Source: an uncultured virus (IMG/VR IMGVR_UViG_3300042014_000090)
Lineage: Duplodnaviria > Heunggongvirae > Uroviricota > Caudoviricetes
Virus record (IMG/VR): IMGVR_UViG_3300042014_000090
DNA length: 64,000 nt
Strand: one strand, 5' to 3'
The notes beneath the pieces were generated by a model. The model did not search any database. It worked only from the letters and a program-made list of their open reading frames with translations, and was not told where the DNA came from. Each line of letters starts with the position of its first letter. Position 1 is the first letter of the stretch. The translations under genes were made by a program, and so were the position numbers. This document shows, piece after piece, positions 1,770-34,739 of the stretch.

Positions 1770-2050
1770 CCACCGACTACACCCCCGGCGACCCGCCGGT
1801 CCCCATCGGCTCGGTCGTCGAGTACGACGACGGTGGCCGGTTCAGGATCCTCGGCCGCGACGACCCCGAGCAGCATCCGCACCGGCAACAGCTGCCCGAC
1901 GATCTCGCGTCGTACTACCCGGACGGCGCTGCCTACTACCTCTGGCCGGAGGGAGTCGCCATGAAGTTCGGCAACCGCGACCAGTCCGTGGCCTGGGTCC
2001 GGCGTACGTCGCTCCGGATCATCGAGACGCCCCGAGAGAAGGATGAATGA
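1766..2050 (+). CDS. hypothetical protein
   Basis: GTGA overlap; AAGGAG RBS. Confidence 0.7.
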   Translation: MTTDYTPGDPPVPIGSVVEYDDGGRFRILGRDDPEQHPHRQQLPDDLASYYPDGAAYYLWPEGVAMKFGNRDQSVAWVRRTSLRIIETPREKDE

Positions 2051-2844
2051 CCACCCCCGACAACCGAACCGCCCTCGGTGACCGCATGAAGCGGTACGAG
2101 CGCGCCTTCAAGCAGACGCTTCCACGCCGTGCCTACACCCTCATGCGCCTCGATGGCCGCGCCTTCCACACCTACCTGAAGGACTCCGAGAAGCCCTTCG
2201 ACAATGGTTTCGTCGAGGACATGGACGCCGTGGCAACGGTCCTGTGCAAGGAGATCCAGGGTGTCCAGTTCGCCTACACCCAGTCCGACGAGATCAGCCT
2301 GCTGATCACGGACTTCCAGACTCTCCAGTCCGATCCGCCCTTCGGTGGGGTGGTGGCCAAGCTGCTGTCCATCCCGCCGTCAATCGCCTCGGTGGTCATG
2401 CACTCACGGCGTCAGTCGCGATTGCTGCCGCAGTTCGACTGCCGGGTCTGGTCGATGACCGATCCGGTGGAGGTGGCGAACTACTTCGTCTGGCGCCAGC
2501 GGGATGCGGTCACCAACTCGATCCAGATGCTGGCCCAGCACTACTACCGGCCGCGCAGCCTGCACGGCCGCTCAACGAACGAGCTTCAGGGCATCCTGTT
2601 CCGCGAGCAGGGCGTCAACTGGAACGACCTCGACGGCGGACTCAAGCGGGGCCGGGTCGTCTATCCCAAGTACCGGACCGCAGAAGCGCTCGCCGCATCC
2701 GGCGACGACAAGCAGATGTCGGCCGCCTGGCTGGTGTCTCCGGCCTCGAACTTCGTCGCCGCTCCAGACAACTGGCTGGCAGCCGTCATCCCGCCGCTGC
2801 CGAGCCTTCACGGCACAGAGCTTCCCCAGGGAGGGGAGAGGTAA
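2047..2844 (+). CDS. thg1: tRNA-His guanylyltransferase (Thg1-like 3'-5' polymerase)
   Basis: LGDRMKRYE, RLDGRAFHTY, YTQSDEISLL, FDCR, NYFVWRQRDA, GVNWND motifs. Confidence 0.92.
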   Translation: MTTPDNRTALGDRMKRYERAFKQTLPRRAYTLMRLDGRAFHTYLKDSEKPFDNGFVEDMDAVATVLCKEIQGVQFAYTQSDEISLLITDFQTLQSDPPFGGVVAKLLSIPPSIASVVMHSRRQSRLLPQFDCRVWSMTDPVEVANYFVWRQRDAVTNSIQMLAQHYYRPRSLHGRSTNELQGILFREQGVNWNDLDGGLKRGRVVYPKYRTAEALAASGDDKQMSAAWLVSPASNFVAAPDNWLAAVIPPLPSLHGTELPQGGER

Positions 2845-3149: not shown

Positions 3150-3238
3150 CTCCGCTAGTCTGCAACAACCCAACGATCAAAGGCCAGTTTGCGGGTGCCG
3201 CTCTACCCCGCTCTCCTGTGCAAGACAAGGACGTCACC

Positions 3239-3682
3239 ATGGTCTACGGACCCCCGCTGTATCCGCCGCCCCCTCCGCCGCCGCCGCCGAAGCGGAACAC
3301 ACCCCTGATCGTCATAGCCTGCGTCCTCGGTGGCGTCTTCTGGGCCACGGTCTTCGCCTCCGTGATGGACGACGATGACACCGAGACGAAGAGGGAGACC
3401 GTGTCGATTACGGCCCCCGCCACTGACGTCGAAACGGAAGATCCCACCGAGGACCCCACCTCCGACGCCGCCCTCGGCGACGACTTCACCAGGATCATCG
3501 TCGACACCGTCTGGGAGGACATGACGCAGGAGGACCAGGATTCCATGTGCCTGGGCATCGAGGTCTTCGGGGTGGAGTGGGCCGCCGACGAGATGCGCGG
3601 CAGCGGTGACGACCCGGACATCGACTGGGACCTCGCCGCCGAAATCATCGAGGAGAAGTGCGACGAGCGCAGCACTTACTGA
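3239..3682 (+). CDS. membrane protein with poly-Pro N-terminus and acidic extracellular domain
   Basis: PPPPPPPP, TM helix PLIVIACVLGGVFWATVFASV, paired Cys. Confidence 0.75.
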   Translation: MVYGPPLYPPPPPPPPPKRNTPLIVIACVLGGVFWATVFASVMDDDDTETKRETVSITAPATDVETEDPTEDPTSDAALGDDFTRIIVDTVWEDMTQEDQDSMCLGIEVFGVEWAADEMRGSGDDPDIDWDLAAEIIEEKCDERSTY

Positions 3683-31561: not shown

Positions 31562-31589
31562 TTGACACACCCACTCGTGGTGATAGTGT
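31562..31589 (+). promoter_or_regulatory. promoter of RNA island
   Basis: TTGACA-16 bp-TAGTGT with TGn extended -10; first Y-like RNA starts about 9 nt downstream. Confidence 0.65.
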
Positions 31590-31597
31590 GAACGCAC

Positions 31598-31681
31598 TCG
31601 AACGGCAGGTGCGAACGGCATCGGATACTTCCCTTCAAAGGACGATCCAATCCGACACCGGTTTAGACCTCTGCCGATCGA
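31598..31681 (+). ncRNA. Y-RNA-like element 1 (short)
   Basis: cggcaGGTGCGAA...TACTTC...TAGACCTctgccg terminal stem. Confidence 0.65.
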
Positions 31682-31694
31682 TTGAAAACTTCAA

Positions 31695-31833
31695 ACTGCC
31701 CGGTGCGAAGATGACGAGTTCTTCCGACTATTAATCGGCTGGTCGCGGGTTCGAGTCCCGCCTGGAGAGGAAACTCCCCGGTAGCTCAGATGGCAGAGCA
31801 GCTGGACGCGTCGCCGACTTGATCTCGGGCAGT
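31695..31833 (+). ncRNA. Y RNA (YrlA-like) element 2, permuted tRNA module
   Basis: actgcccGGTGCGAA...TTCTTC, AC-like arm, T arm gcggg-TTCGAGT-cccgc, closed acceptor (GAAA loop), D arm tagctcagatggcagagc, GACTTGATCTcgggcagt. Confidence 0.85.
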
Positions 31834-31837
31834 ACCT

Positions 31838-31911
31838 GGTGGATGTAGCTCAATAGGTAGAGCGCCTCGTTGTGGTCGAGGAGGCAGCGGGTTCGGGACC
31901 CGTCGTTCACC
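31838..31911 (+). tRNA. tRNA-His(GTG) with encoded G-1
   Basis: CCTCG-TTGTGGT-CGAGG; G-1/C73; atypical T loop TTCGGGA. Confidence 0.85.
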
Positions 31912-31937
31912 CTTGAACAACTGAACAGAGAGTCTCA

Positions 31938-32015
31938 GCACCTGGTGCGAATGGCACCCCGGTTACTTCTTTGGAAAAGTAGACACCCGGACCGCCAGCT
32001 TTTGATCTCAGGTGC
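31938..32015 (+). ncRNA. Y-RNA-like element 3 (short)
   Basis: gcacctGGTGCGAA...TACTTC...TTTGATCTcaggtgc. Confidence 0.7.
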
Positions 32016-32025
32016 CTTGTACCTT

Positions 32026-32171
32026 GCTGTGCCTGGTGCGACAGATGCGGAGTTCTTCGCATTGGGAGCGAGTAGTACGGGTTCAAATCCCGTCCGGTCA
32101 TCCAATGGGTGCCGGTAGTGTAACGGCAGCACGCTTACGAATCGCCGCGTCGACTTGATCTCAGGCACAGC
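32026..32171 (+). ncRNA. Y RNA (YrlA-like) element 4, permuted tRNA module
   Basis: gctgtgcctGGTGCGAC...TTCTTC, T arm acggg-TTCAAAT-cccgt, closed acceptor, D arm tagtgtaacggcagcac, GACTTGATCTcaggcacagc. Confidence 0.85.
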
Positions 32172-32179
32172 AATTACAA

Positions 32180-32252
32180 TCCCCAATGGCACAATCGGCA
32201 GCGCAACGGATTGTTAATCCGTAGGTTCCTGGTTCGAATCCAGGTTGGGGAG
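32180..32252 (+). tRNA. tRNA-Asn(GTT)
   Basis: TCCCCAA/TTGGGGA, ACGGA-TTGTTAA-TCCGT, G73. Confidence 0.9.
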
Positions 32253-32368
32253 CAAAGGTTGGGGGCTGCTCCGGCAGGAAAATCCACCTCCCCCAGGCGT
32301 CGATGCCCTGCGCGGCCGGGATGCCGGTGAGGCGGGGGAACCGGCTCGGCGCCACTACAACTTCATGA

Positions 32369-32443
32369 GGGGTCTTAGCTCAGCGTGGTTGGAGCACTCG
32401 ACTGATAATCGAGAGGACGGGGGTTCAACTCCCTCAGGCCCTA
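32369..32443 (+). tRNA. tRNA-Ile(GAT)
   Basis: CTCGA-CTGATAA-TCGAG; cloverleaf. Confidence 0.88.
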
Positions 32444-32644
32444 CGTCGAACCACCCGCCGCCTGTACAGCGGCGGGTCACGCCTGGCCCGCGCGAACGCC
32501 GTGGTTCCGGCTTGGGTTGAACCCAGGGCTGGGCACATAACTCAATCGGCTCCAGAGCAGTGTTTTCCGAGCGTCACTCTGGAGAAGCGTGGCCACCAAG
32601 CACTGACCACGCTGCCTCTCCCACCTGACAGGGAGGGGTAACCC

Positions 32645-32717
32645 GGATCCTTAGCTCAGCGGATAGAGCGTCTTGCTACGGATGAGAAGGTCGGGGGTTC
32701 AAATCCCTCAGGATCCA
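32645..32717 (+). tRNA. tRNA-Arg(ACG)
   Basis: GGATCCT/AGGATCC, TCTTG-CTACGGA-TGAGA. Confidence 0.88.
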
Positions 32718-32720
32718 CGA

Positions 32721-32855
32721 TGTCCCCGGTGCGAAGGCAGCGGCTACTTCTCCACTCAAGAGGGAGACGCGGGTTCAAATCCCGTCCAGCCGTCACGGCT
32801 GGTGGTCGAGCGGCCTAAGACGCCTTGTACCGACGCCGACTTGATCTCGGGGACA
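32721..32855 (+). ncRNA. Y RNA (YrlA-like) element 5, permuted tRNA module
   Basis: tgtccccGGTGCGAA...TACTTC, T arm gcggg-TTCAAAT-cccgt, ccagccg-tca-cggctgg, D arm tggtcgagcggcctaagac, GACTTGATCTcggggaca. Confidence 0.85.
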
Positions 32856-32858
32856 CTA

Positions 32859-32955
32859 GGGAGCTGACATGGAGCAGGCCGGGACTGATCACCCGGTGCC
32901 AGGTGATACCGGAGGTAGTACCGAAGGGAAGGGGGTTCGAGTCCCCCAGCTCCCC
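32859..32955 (+). ncRNA. non-canonical tRNA-like RNA
   Basis: GGGAGCT/AGCTCCC acceptor and ggggg-TTCGAGT-ccccc T arm; no normal D arm; long variable region. Confidence 0.55.
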
Positions 32956-33074
32956 TGGAGACATCAACCCGGTAGGGACCTTCGGCCCTAGTGTCGATCC
33001 CCACCGGGTCTTAACGTCTCACTACAGATCACCAGGATCTCACTGGTGCGAACACATGACAGGAAGGTCGACAG

Positions 33075-34739
33075 GTGGCTCGCTTCAACACCACCAACCA
33101 TCGGACACGGCCAGCGGTCGCCACCACGACCAGCCCCATCGCCACCGTCTCCAAGACCCCCGACACCCGCACCTTCGAGGGCGCGGCCGGATGGACACGG
33201 ACAGCGAAGGCCGAACTCTTCCTCCGCGCAGCAGGTGCCTTCCACGGGGGTGTAGGCAGCTTCTACGAGAACGCGGAGAAGAGGGACGAGCGCCTGCGGG
33301 AACTCCTCCGTACCGTGGCGATCGAAGACCCGCAGTGGTGCGTCGAGTTCGCCACCTGGCTGCGCGGCCCCGGCAACATCCGCACCGGCGCGCTGATGTT
33401 CGCCGTCGAGTTCGTGCACGAGCGCCTCGCCCACATGAAGGGCGCTGGGGTCATCGACCACTGCAACCGGCAGATCATCAACGCCGCGTGCCAGCGCCCC
33501 GACGAGCCCGGCGAGATCCTCGCGATCTGGACCGCCTGGTTCGGCCGCCGGATCCCCAAGCCGGTGAAGCGGGGTGTCGCCGACGCCGTACGACGGCTCT
33601 ACCACCCCAAGTCGCTGCTGAAGTGGGACACCGCTTCCAAGGGCTACCGCTTCGGTGATGTCCTCAACCTGGTGCACGCGGCGCCCGACCCGGACAAGCC
33701 GTGGCAGGGCGACCTGTTCCAGTACGCCCTCGACCGGCGGCACCACCCGGACACGGCGGTCGTGCCCAAGTCGCTCCCGATGGTCGCGGCTCACCGTTCC
33801 CTCATGGAGATGTCGGTCGAGGAGCGGCGTAAGTTCATGCGCGTCCCGCATATCGACAAGGTTCTCGCCGACGCGGGTATGACCTGGGAGGCGCTGGCGG
33901 GATGGCTCCAGGGCCCCATGGACAAGGCGGCCTGGGAGGCCGTCATCCCGTCCATGCCGTTCATGGCCCAGCTCCGCAATCTCAGGAACTTCGACGAGGC
34001 CGGTGTCTCCGACAAGGTGGCCCAGCAGGTCATCGACCGGCTGACGGACCCCGAGGACATCGCAAAGTCGCGGCAGTTCCCGTTCCGGTTCCACACGGCC
34101 TACCGTGAGGCGCCGTCGCTGCGGTGGGCACACGCCCTGGACAAGGCGCTCACCGCTTCGCTGAGCAACGTGCCGTTCCTCGGTGGCAGCACGCTGATCA
34201 TGGTGGACACCTCCAGCTCCATGGAGCACCGGGTGTCCGAGAAGTCGTCGGTGCTCCGGTGGGACGCCGCGACACTGTTTGGCGTGGCGCTCGGTCAGCG
34301 CTGCGCCAAGGCGGAAGTGGTCTCCTTCTCCTCGACGAGGCGATGGATGGGCGACCCGCCTGGAGCGAACACGAAGACTTTCCAGCTGAAGAAGGGGGAG
34401 TCGCTGCTGCGCAGCATCGACCGGTGGAAGGCCGACGGGTTCTTCCTCGGCGGCGGTACGGACACGATGCTGGCCGTCAAGCGCCACTTCGCCGGACACG
34501 ACCGGGTCGTCATCATCACTGACGAGCAGGCCCACGACGGCGACCCAGGCTCCGTCATCCCGAAGGACACACCGCTCTACACCTGGAACCTTGCCGGGTA
34601 CGAGGCGGCGCACACGTCCTCCGGGAGCAATGCCCGCTTCAGCCTTGGCGGCCTGACCGACAAGGCGTTCACGCTCATTCCGATCCTGGAATCGGGAGCA
34701 CAGGGGACATGGCCGTGGAAGGTTGACGCCACGGCATGA
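33075..34739 (+). CDS. rsr: Ro60/Rsr TROVE-domain RNA-binding protein
   Basis: TFEG..G, ELFL, FYE, WLR..GNIRT, RPDEPGE, KPVKRGVADA, MAQLRNLRN, SRQFPFRF; vWA DTSSSM, GGGTD, IITDEQ. Confidence 0.93.
   Translation: MARFNTTNHRTRPAVATTTSPIATVSKTPDTRTFEGAAGWTRTAKAELFLRAAGAFHGGVGSFYENAEKRDERLRELLRTVAIEDPQWCVEFATWLRGPGNIRTGALMFAVEFVHERLAHMKGAGVIDHCNRQIINAACQRPDEPGEILAIWTAWFGRRIPKPVKRGVADAVRRLYHPKSLLKWDTASKGYRFGDVLNLVHAAPDPDKPWQGDLFQYALDRRHHPDTAVVPKSLPMVAAHRSLMEMSVEERRKFMRVPHIDKVLADAGMTWEALAGWLQGPMDKAAWEAVIPSMPFMAQLRNLRNFDEAGVSDKVAQQVIDRLTDPEDIAKSRQFPFRFHTAYREAPSLRWAHALDKALTASLSNVPFLGGSTLIMVDTSSSMEHRVSEKSSVLRWDAATLFGVALGQRCAKAEVVSFSSTRRWMGDPPGANTKTFQLKKGESLLRSIDRWKADGFFLGGGTDTMLAVKRHFAGHDRVVIITDEQAHDGDPGSVIPKDTPLYTWNLAGYEAAHTSSGSNARFSLGGLTDKAFTLIPILESGAQGTWPWKVDATA

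Follow-up and report, generated by a model that had tools for sequence, protein, structure and literature searches.

What do the small RNAs encoded beside the Ro60 gene of a tailed phage display, and what could read it? This question is raised by a stretch of 64,000 nucleotides from an uncultured virus of the Caudoviricetes (IMG/VR record IMGVR_UViG_3300042014_000090; the whole stretch is referred to as the window), in which five RNA elements, E1 to E5, lie upstream of a gene for a Ro60-like (TROVE) protein. An earlier note on this DNA had proposed that each of these RNAs carries a different anticodon-like loop and that together they form a panel of decoys. In the analysis described here, E1-E5 are identified as bacterial-type Y RNAs of the YrlA/YrlB kind beside a Ro gene, and a hairpin is found in E1, E2, E4 and E5, the geometry and loop frame of which are those of the anticodon arm of a transfer RNA (tRNA). 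The reading that we lean towards, with fair but far from full confidence, is that of a Ro60-associated Y RNA array whose V stem-loop is a homolog or mimic of the anticodon arm and is probably read by proteins that recognise the loop.

The Ro60-like gene is located at 33075-34739 on the plus strand (Pfam TROVE, E 4e-16), and the five elements were found at 31603-32854, where the earlier note had placed them. All are on the plus strand and 0.2-1.5 kb upstream of the TROVE open reading frame (ORF), as expected of YrlA RNAs, which lie on the same strand as a Ro60/TROVE gene and within about 4 kb of it. E1 (31603-31676) and E3 (31938-32015) are short Y RNAs, and E2 (31697-31832), E4 (32030-32168) and E5 (32722-32854) are YrlA-like. 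E1 was recognised by its 5' GGUGCGAA motif and the 3' strand pairing with it, E2 by its Rfam YrlA match and the consensus of its homologs, and E4 by its Rfam YrlA match and its single-sequence fold, which contains the hairpin, the T arm and the acceptor-like stem. Common to all five are a 5' GGUGCGA(A), one base longer than the published Ro-binding motif GNCGAAN0-1G, the motif ACUUC about 15-20 nt further on, and, on the 3' side, a UUGAUCUC strand paired with the 5' end. The resulting putative Ro-binding (Y) stem covaries among 22 homologs (for example CG in 11 and AU in 11). The region would thus be an expanded array of Ro60-associated Y RNAs, each with a predicted Ro-binding stem formed by the 5' GGUGCGA and the 3' UUGAUCUC strands.

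With the Rfam YrlA model (RF02553), E2 scored 40.1 bits (E 1.7e-6), E5 18.8 bits and E4 17.0 bits; no Rfam match was obtained for E1 or E3. A T arm, a closed acceptor-like stem and a D arm are present in E2, E4 and E5 and not in E1 and E3. In E2 the T arm is at 31745-31761, the closed acceptor-like stem at 31762-31781 and the D arm at 31784-31799; in E4 they are at 32077-32093, 32094-32115 and 32118-32132, and the T arm of E5 is at 32769-32785. RNAalifold recovered the Y stem, the T arm, the closed acceptor-like stem and the D arm from the 22 homologs, with 15 of the 35 consensus pairs changed on both sides and with covariation in the Y and acceptor-like stems. That E2, E4 and E5 are themselves tRNAs was considered and rejected: in place of a cloverleaf with free ends, they have the hairpin first, then the T arm and the closed acceptor-like stem, and the D arm last. 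Neither ARAGORN nor Rfam at threshold called any of the three a tRNA, and the 5' half of E2 scored 21.7 bits with the Rfam tRNA model.

Relatives were collected in four sets. Thirty viral loci were retrieved via the Ro protein (one of them, L001, is identical to the window) and 120 viral stretches via a DNA pattern, most single matches among the latter being due to chance; the third and fourth sets comprise 80 Streptomyces genome loci and four annotated phage stretches. Elements were extracted with sequence patterns of our own, which yielded 64 unique viral or window elements with a T arm. A MAFFT alignment (A1) placed all gaps at the 5' end and mixed two lengths of the variable loop, and was therefore not used for counting. 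Pairing was counted instead in two ungapped alignments made without reference to a structure. A2 contains 21 of the 22 segments of length 24 (one false T-arm call was removed) and A3 all 16 segments of length 23. Left out of both are 10 segments of length 22 or 25, including that of window E2.

The hairpin is supported beyond chance. Of all registers tried over 47 homologous segments, the one whose 5' strand begins with the first U of UUC and whose loop is 7 nt long gave the most pairs, 3.66 of 5. In this register 83.8% of the hairpin cells are paired in the 21 sequences of A2 and 77.5% in the 16 sequences of A3. The hairpin and T arm cells taken together are paired to 91.0% and 88.8%, respectively, compared with 36-67% when the partners are slid by 1-3 columns. 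The outer three pairs use the invariant UUC and therefore carry no covariation. The two inner pairs change on both sides, the covariation that the earlier note had named as a check: in A2 the pair 31:39 is AU in 11 sequences, CG in 4, UA in 2, GU in 1 and unpaired in 3, and the pair 30:40 is CG in 9, GC in 7, GU in 2 and unpaired in 3. Both-sided changes were also seen at both pairs in A3. RNAalifold on the alignment A4 set the hairpin one register off, inside a run of G; the register chosen here is preferred, because its closing pair changes from A-U to G-C to C-G. It follows from this register that the CTTC, described in the earlier note as a linker, is not one, since its UUC is the 5' strand of the hairpin.

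Within the window, E2 and E4 fit the common register exactly. The hairpin of E2 (31723-31739) has a stem of four standard pairs and a U.C (31723-31727 with 31735-31739) closing the 7-nt loop CUAUUAA, and that of E4 (32056-32072) has five pairs (32056-32060 with 32068-32072) and the loop AUUGGGA. The hairpin of E1 (31629-31643, loop CUUCAAA at 31633-31639) has a 3-bp stem that is weak by itself, and its orthologs in L003 and L007 keep the 7-nt loop with a compensatory change from C-G to U-A. For E5 a hairpin exists, as had been proposed, but purine repeats allow several registers. The UCUCC/GGAGA pairing of the earlier note gives a 9-nt loop, whereas the register common to the homologs (32748-32764, UUCUC/GAGGG) gives the loop CACUCAA, with A at position 33, which is also found in the L003 ortholog. 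The single-sequence fold of E5 is a third solution with a 4-nt loop, and relatives with the same type of D arm have the loops CUUCAA (L002) and CUGCUAA (L009). An anticodon-like loop in every element, as had been claimed, is not borne out for E3, where the stem has at most 2 bp and is not kept in homologs; these conserve a single-stranded UUUGG..AAA motif instead, which corresponds to the apical motif ACUUCUUUGGAAAAG (31965-31979) of E3.

The spacing around the hairpin is that of a tRNA. From the first base of ACUUC to the T arm, 48 of the 64 unique viral or window elements have 22-25 nt, as expected if a 5-bp stem closes a 7-nt loop (5, 7 and 5 nt) and is followed by a connector of 4-5 nt. 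Among 124 unique elements the base before the T stem covaries with position 15, the second base of the D loop (G:C in 63, A:U in 52, other in 9); in the window this pair is G:C in E2 and A:U in E4. This Levitt (15:48) covariation fixes the numbering, so that the connector corresponds to positions 44-48 and the hairpin to positions 27-43. The hairpin would therefore be followed by a variable loop of class I length (31740-31744 in E2, 32073-32076 in E4 and 32765-32768 in E5), the last base of which makes the 15:48 pair. The permuted order given in the earlier note, anticodon-like arm, T arm, closed acceptor and D arm, thus holds with tRNA spacing for E2 and E4, and the ambiguity of the E5 register remains. 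As the acceptor end is closed, charging is not possible, and E2 and E4 would be complete, circularly permuted, non-chargeable tRNA look-alikes on a Ro-binding stem.

The full geometry, in which a 5-bp stem closes a 7-nt loop and a variable loop of 4-5 nt follows, was found in 67 of 149 unique tRNA-like elements, counted after four obvious false matches without Y RNA context had been dropped. These 67 hairpins comprise 36 of the 63 viral or window elements and 31 of the 86 Streptomyces elements, and contain 28 distinct loops, a list that still holds a few false hairpins (loops GGGGACC and CGGAAAA). They were compared with 65 real tRNAs of the same loci. U33 is present in 25 of the 28 loops and in 64 of the 65 tRNAs, a purine at position 37 in 23 and in all 65, a pyrimidine at position 32 in 23 and in 62, and A38 in 25 and in 47. 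Entropy at positions 34-36 is 1.80-1.98 bits in the Y RNA loops and 1.78-1.92 bits in the tRNAs; at positions 33 and 38 it is 0.59 bits each in the loops, and 0.11 and 1.18 bits, respectively, in the tRNAs. Seven of the 28 loops recur letter for letter as anticodon loops of real tRNAs from these loci, among them CUGAUAA, CUCAUAA, CUACGGA and UUUGGGA. Two main frames could be distinguished, CU-NN-UAA and WU-NN-GGA, and G36 is accompanied by G37 in 6 of 7 distinct loops, a base other than G at 36 by a base other than G at 37 in 21 of 21. E2 and E4 have the 5-bp stem, the 7-nt loop, U33 and a purine at 37, and wherever the hairpin exists among the homologs, its loop size and its U33/purine-37 pattern are conserved; the loss of these features among homologs, named in the earlier note as a refutation, was thus not seen.

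The only one of the 65 sequences counted as real tRNAs that has no U33 turned out to be the tRNA-like insert of a Y RNA in locus L016. There, at 3197-3334, a Ro-binding stem surrounds a tRNA-like domain in the normal, unpermuted order of D arm, anticodon-like arm (loop AAGGUAA), variable loop and T arm, which ARAGORN had counted among the tRNAs.

The likeness is not confined to the YrlA-like RNAs. Among 90 unique short Y-like elements, 41 form a stem of 4-5 bp without mismatch around a 7-nt loop, again in this register, and their three commonest loops, CUUCCAA, CUCUCAA and CUUUCAA, are the loops of the real Gly(UCC), Glu(CUC) and Glu(UUC) tRNAs.

Such a likeness might be inherited and without present use. 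In that case the hairpin would be the leftover anticodon arm of an ancestral tRNA or tRNA dimer and would now serve as a spacer or variable arm with no sequence-specific role. ARAGORN called 17 native Y RNAs tRNAs, spanning from the Y stem through the T arm to the acceptor-like stem, which matches the dimeric-tRNA origin model for YrlA quoted by Wang et al. (10.1101/312249). The hairpin is also decayed or absent in many elements (82 of 149), and those of L013 and L064 keep the sequence CAGUUAA without a stem. A de-permutation in silico was not counted as support for any reading: when the acceptor 3' strand, D arm, hairpin, T arm and acceptor 5' strand were joined in this order, ARAGORN called 70 of 73 constructs tRNAs, with the hairpin triplet as anticodon in 69, but 632 of 730 controls with shuffled hairpins were also called, so that this test has low power.

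The variation among orthologs argues against a mere leftover. In 51 distinct chromosomal Streptomyces orthologs of E2, positions 32, 33, 36, 37 and 38 (C32-U33..U36-A37-A38) hardly vary. Of the 145 columns, position 34 (G 28, C 21, A 1, U 1) is the 6th most variable and position 35 (A 37, C 8, U 6) the 9th, about as variable as free positions in the D and acceptor loops. The triplet of E2 itself is AUU in the window and in L007 and GGU in L003, and loops homologous to that of E4, UUUGGGA or AUUGGGA, are found in L009, L048, L079 and L131. The loop CUGCUAA stays constant while the stem below it covaries (UUCUC/GAGAG, UUCCA/UGGGG and CCUGU/ACAGG). The loop frame is conserved and the triplet is not, and the persistence of CUGCUAA together with the variation among orthologs suggests that selection acts on the frame, mainly NNU-A-A and NNG-G-A, and not on the triplet.

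The same hairpin families occur in chromosomal Streptomyces Ro loci, for example in L185, which is flanked by genes for PhoX, an MFS transporter and a TetR regulator; they are thus not specific to phages. The module is also old or mobile: upstream of the TROVE gene of Caulobacter phage CcrColossus there are five Y RNAs, and in two of these ACUUC is followed by hairpins with the loops AUCUGGA and CUGUUAA. The occurrence of the module in CcrColossus, like the near-invariance of the frame, fits poorly with a relic, which we consider an improbable explanation.

If the arm is maintained for its frame, its readers are most likely proteins that recognise the architecture of an anticodon loop. The hairpin that begins in the conserved ACUUC corresponds to the V stem-loop published for YrlA, and as a homolog or mimic of the anticodon arm it would present the loop frame Y32-U33-NNN-R37-A38. 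G36-G37 is a determinant of TrmD, which makes m1G37, and the NNG-G-A frame would carry it. The NNU-A-A frame would carry 36-UAA-38, which is strictly required for bacterial t6A37 (PMC13276492). Such readers may be tRNA-modifying or tRNA-binding enzymes, and these could either be YrlA effectors that are brought to Ro60 or be titrated by the RNA. A set of baits specific for single anticodons is less likely than this recognition of the loop architecture.

The earlier note had proposed decoys or baits for anticodon nucleases, tRNA-modifying enzymes or the ribosomal A site. Taken further, the different loops would bind, or be cut by, anticodon nucleases of the host or other anticodon-directed defence enzymes, so that tRNAs of the host or the phage are spared, with Ro60 holding or recycling the bait. 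E2 and E4, complete look-alikes with canonical loop frames, would suit this role, as would the setting in a phage tRNA cluster and the fast variation of positions 34 and 35 among orthologs. Moreover, paralogs within one array have different loops, not only in the window but also in L009 (GUU, GCU, UGG) and L048 (GCU, GAA, UGG). YrlA's tRNA-like domain was suggested to inhibit an SOS-induced anticodon nuclease competitively (Hughes et al., 2020, PMC7790460), and phage Bas63 has a Ro60-like protein that counters the ppl defence system (PMC11482910). However, the hairpin families are shared with chromosomal loci that are not prophages (the PhoX, MFS and TetR flanks), the triplets are not kept even in close relatives and vary no more than free positions in the D and acceptor loops do, and 82 of the 149 elements have no hairpin. 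According to PMC7790460, Salmonella YrlA was not cleaved by the nuclease studied. No gene for an RNA-repair ligase is present among the 52 window ORFs that were fully scanned with Pfam, and no nuclease target is known for these hosts. A decoy panel is therefore regarded as unlikely.

A broader version would take the Ro60-bound Y RNAs of Streptomyces, its phages and distant phages such as CcrColossus, permuted tRNA look-alikes and short Y RNAs alike, as carriers of a genuine mimic of the anticodon stem-loop, with the phage arrays acting as baits, sensors or inhibitors and the drift at positions 34 and 35 reflecting conflict. If so, phage arrays with different loops would act, anchored to Ro60, against enzymes that attack or modify anticodon loops. 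We hold this for speculative and doubt it rather strongly.

It could also be asked whether the loop bases pair with another RNA, for example UGG with the 3' CCA of tRNAs, by which substrates would be tethered to Ro60. UGG is present in E4-type loops (AUUGGGA, UUUGGGA, CUGGAAA, AUCUGGA, AUAUGGA, UUCUGGU), in E3-type apical motifs and in chromosomal class-2 elements, an apparent recurrence. The CUNNUAA family has no UGG motif, and the idea draws on an analogy to the recognition of CCA by T-box and RNase P. Pairing of this kind is very improbable as an explanation of the hairpin. As an observation in its own right, UGG or UUGG is found at shifting positions in the E4-type loops, the E3-type apical regions and the chromosomal class-2 elements, and UUUGG-type apical motifs are present in 12 of the 90 unique short elements.

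For an anticodon arm read by loop-recognising proteins, several points have to be set on the other side. The elements were gathered with our own patterns, so that the sample is biased towards this clade, and the sequences are related, so that the counts are not independent. The Rfam YrlA scores of E2, E4 and E5 are all below the gathering score of 69 bits. The absence of the hairpin from 82 of 149 unique tRNA-like elements indicates that it is dispensable for some Y RNAs, and where it occurs in short Y RNAs, which have no T and D arms, there is no tRNA-like fold around it. The link between G36 and G37 may reflect a single homologous family of GGA motifs, and E5 in the common register has A33 and not U33. 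Finally, a 9-nt linker follows the D arm, and the D stem could stack on the hairpin or on the Y stem; in the crystal structure of the Salmonella RNA the Y stem stacks on the D stem (10.1101/312249).

The surroundings of the array are those of a phage tRNA cluster. Genes for capsid, portal, a ClpP-like protease, an amidase, a family A DNA polymerase, helicases and a Rad52-like protein were identified with Pfam, and a PD-(D/E)XK nuclease and an AAA_24 protein are also encoded; the window is part of a Streptomyces-type tailed phage. Five Streptomyces phage genomes (GiJojo, pSt2308, Alone3, LuckySocke and BRock; six records) encode a 'Ro-like RNA binding protein' to which the Ro protein of the window is 44-46% identical; with the Ro proteins of the 80 Streptomyces genomes the identity is 53-59%. 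Interleaved with the Y RNAs on the plus strand are tRNA-His(GUG) at 31839-31912 (ARAGORN; Rfam tRNA 54.3 bits) and, each called by ARAGORN and Rfam, tRNA-Asn(GUU) at 32180-32253, tRNA-Ile(GAU) at 32369-32444 and tRNA-Arg(ACG) at 32645-32718. The Y RNAs and these tRNAs are probably transcribed together. A TTGACA and a TAGTGT separated by 16 nt (31562-31589, plus strand) were read by eye upstream of E1, and both hexamers are kept in L003; judged from this motif, a promoter of the Y RNA and tRNA array is possible at this site. The site was not reported by a scan for consensus promoters, in which no candidate reached the set criteria. A terminator scan gave one terminator-like site, on the minus strand, which equals the chance expectation.

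Of 63 ORFs selected for Pfam, 52 were fully scanned and the other 11 partly or not at all. Among the 52, no RNA-repair gene (RtcB or RNA ligase) was found, and the only tRNA-related enzyme among the scanned ORFs is a Thg1-like tRNA-His guanylyltransferase (2047-2844, plus strand, Pfam E 1.8e-23), in a phage that also has a tRNA-His.

Three further segments on the plus strand were noted near the array. Between tRNA-Ile and tRNA-Arg, at about 32474-32545, a conserved, GC-rich and apparently structured stretch is common to the window, L003 and L007; it has no Rfam match and may be a further non-coding RNA. At 32860-32955 ARAGORN reported a 96-nt tRNA-like element as 'tRNA-???', its anticodon being four bases long. 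The acceptor-like stem of this element has 8 bp, its T arm is good and its middle part is odd and long; it has no Rfam match, and a homolog lies at the same place in L007. Directly before the ribosome-binding site and start codon of the Ro gene, a hairpin of CACCAG, 7 nt and CUGGUG (33030-33052) leads into a sixth GGUGCGAA motif; it is kept in L003 and L007. By its motif, this could be a Ro-binding site in the gene's own leader, through which the gene would be autoregulated. In the other locus clade, L005-L030, a terminator-like hairpin (CCCCUCC..GGGG and a U run) is located directly before the Ro ATG, at about 40 nt, which suggests control of read-through between the Y RNAs and the Ro gene.

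Two annotations in phage records concern the same RNAs. The GenBank tRNA-Arg(cct) of GiJojo (L151, 2769-2843) is the 5' half of a Y RNA, with 24.1 bits in the tRNA model and an overlap with a YrlA match, and the GenBank tRNA-Gln of CcrColossus (L234, 368-435) covers, in the first of its five Y RNAs, the stretch with ACUUC, hairpin and T arm. Y RNA 5' halves that are filed as tRNA genes in this way inflate the tRNA counts of phages.

Should the V stem-loop indeed be an anticodon arm whose loop frame is conserved, the search for YrlA effectors narrows to proteins that read anticodon loops; candidates would be the t6A and m1G37 enzymes, anticodon nucleases and RtcB-type repair. The natural loop variants would then also make the published idea of a competitive inhibitor testable.

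Much of the framework for this comparison has been published, namely the Y RNA family with its mimicry of tRNA and its occurrence in phages, the V stem-loop, and the idea of an inhibitor. YrlA has T, acceptor-like (AS) and D stem-loops, and a 'less-conserved fourth stem-loop upstream of T (V)' was described together with the 15:48 covariation and the modification of YrlA by TruB and DusA (Chen et al., 2014, PMC4201824). The tRNA-like domain of Salmonella YrlA was solved by Wang et al. (2018, 10.1101/312249). In the literature that was searched, no paper was found that describes the V stem-loop as an anticodon arm, although two reviews outside that search, PMC10870794 and Sim and Wolin (2018), may discuss the V arm, and neither an anticodon-arm module heading short Y RNAs nor five-member phage arrays interleaved with tRNAs were found.

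Compared with Hughes et al. (2020), where the tRNA-like domain of a Y RNA is likewise proposed to compete with tRNAs for an anticodon nuclease, as in the decoy idea, the situation in the window is different, since that proposal, itself a speculation, is about a YrlA that belongs to a bacterial RNA-repair operon and has no anticodon-like loop, and considers no phage array. The short elements E1 and E3 resemble YrlB of Salmonella and Yrn1 of D. radiodurans, in which a Ro-binding stem carries a small apical module and no full tRNA-like domain, and in Yrn1 Chen et al. (2014) noted a possible 'anticodon arm', its stem of 5 bp closing a loop of 6 nt. E1-type RNAs differ from YrlB in their 3-5-bp hairpin with a 7-nt CU..AA loop in the register of the long Y RNAs, and have no sequence similarity to it.

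With YrlA (RF02553), for which examples from 22 bacteriophages were published before, the window RNAs share the position beside a Ro60/TROVE gene on the same strand, a putative Ro-binding stem, the T arm, the closed acceptor-like stem, the D arm and the 15:48 pair. They differ from it in the 5' GGUGCGA instead of GNCGAAN0-1G, in the 9-nt linker between the D arm and the Y stem, and in the five copies interleaved with tRNAs. In the published model of YrlA the hairpin is taken as a variable arm and the place of the anticodon stem is given to the Y stem; Salmonella YrlA 'lacks the anticodon loop', whereas the hairpin described here has the dimensions and the loop frame of an anticodon arm. With the anticodon arm of class I tRNAs it shares the 5-bp stem, the 7-nt loop, U33, the purine at 37 and the variable loop of 4-5 nt ending in a Y48 paired to R15; it departs from that arm in its place before the T arm, with the D arm last, in the A34 and A33 variants and in the drift of the triplet.

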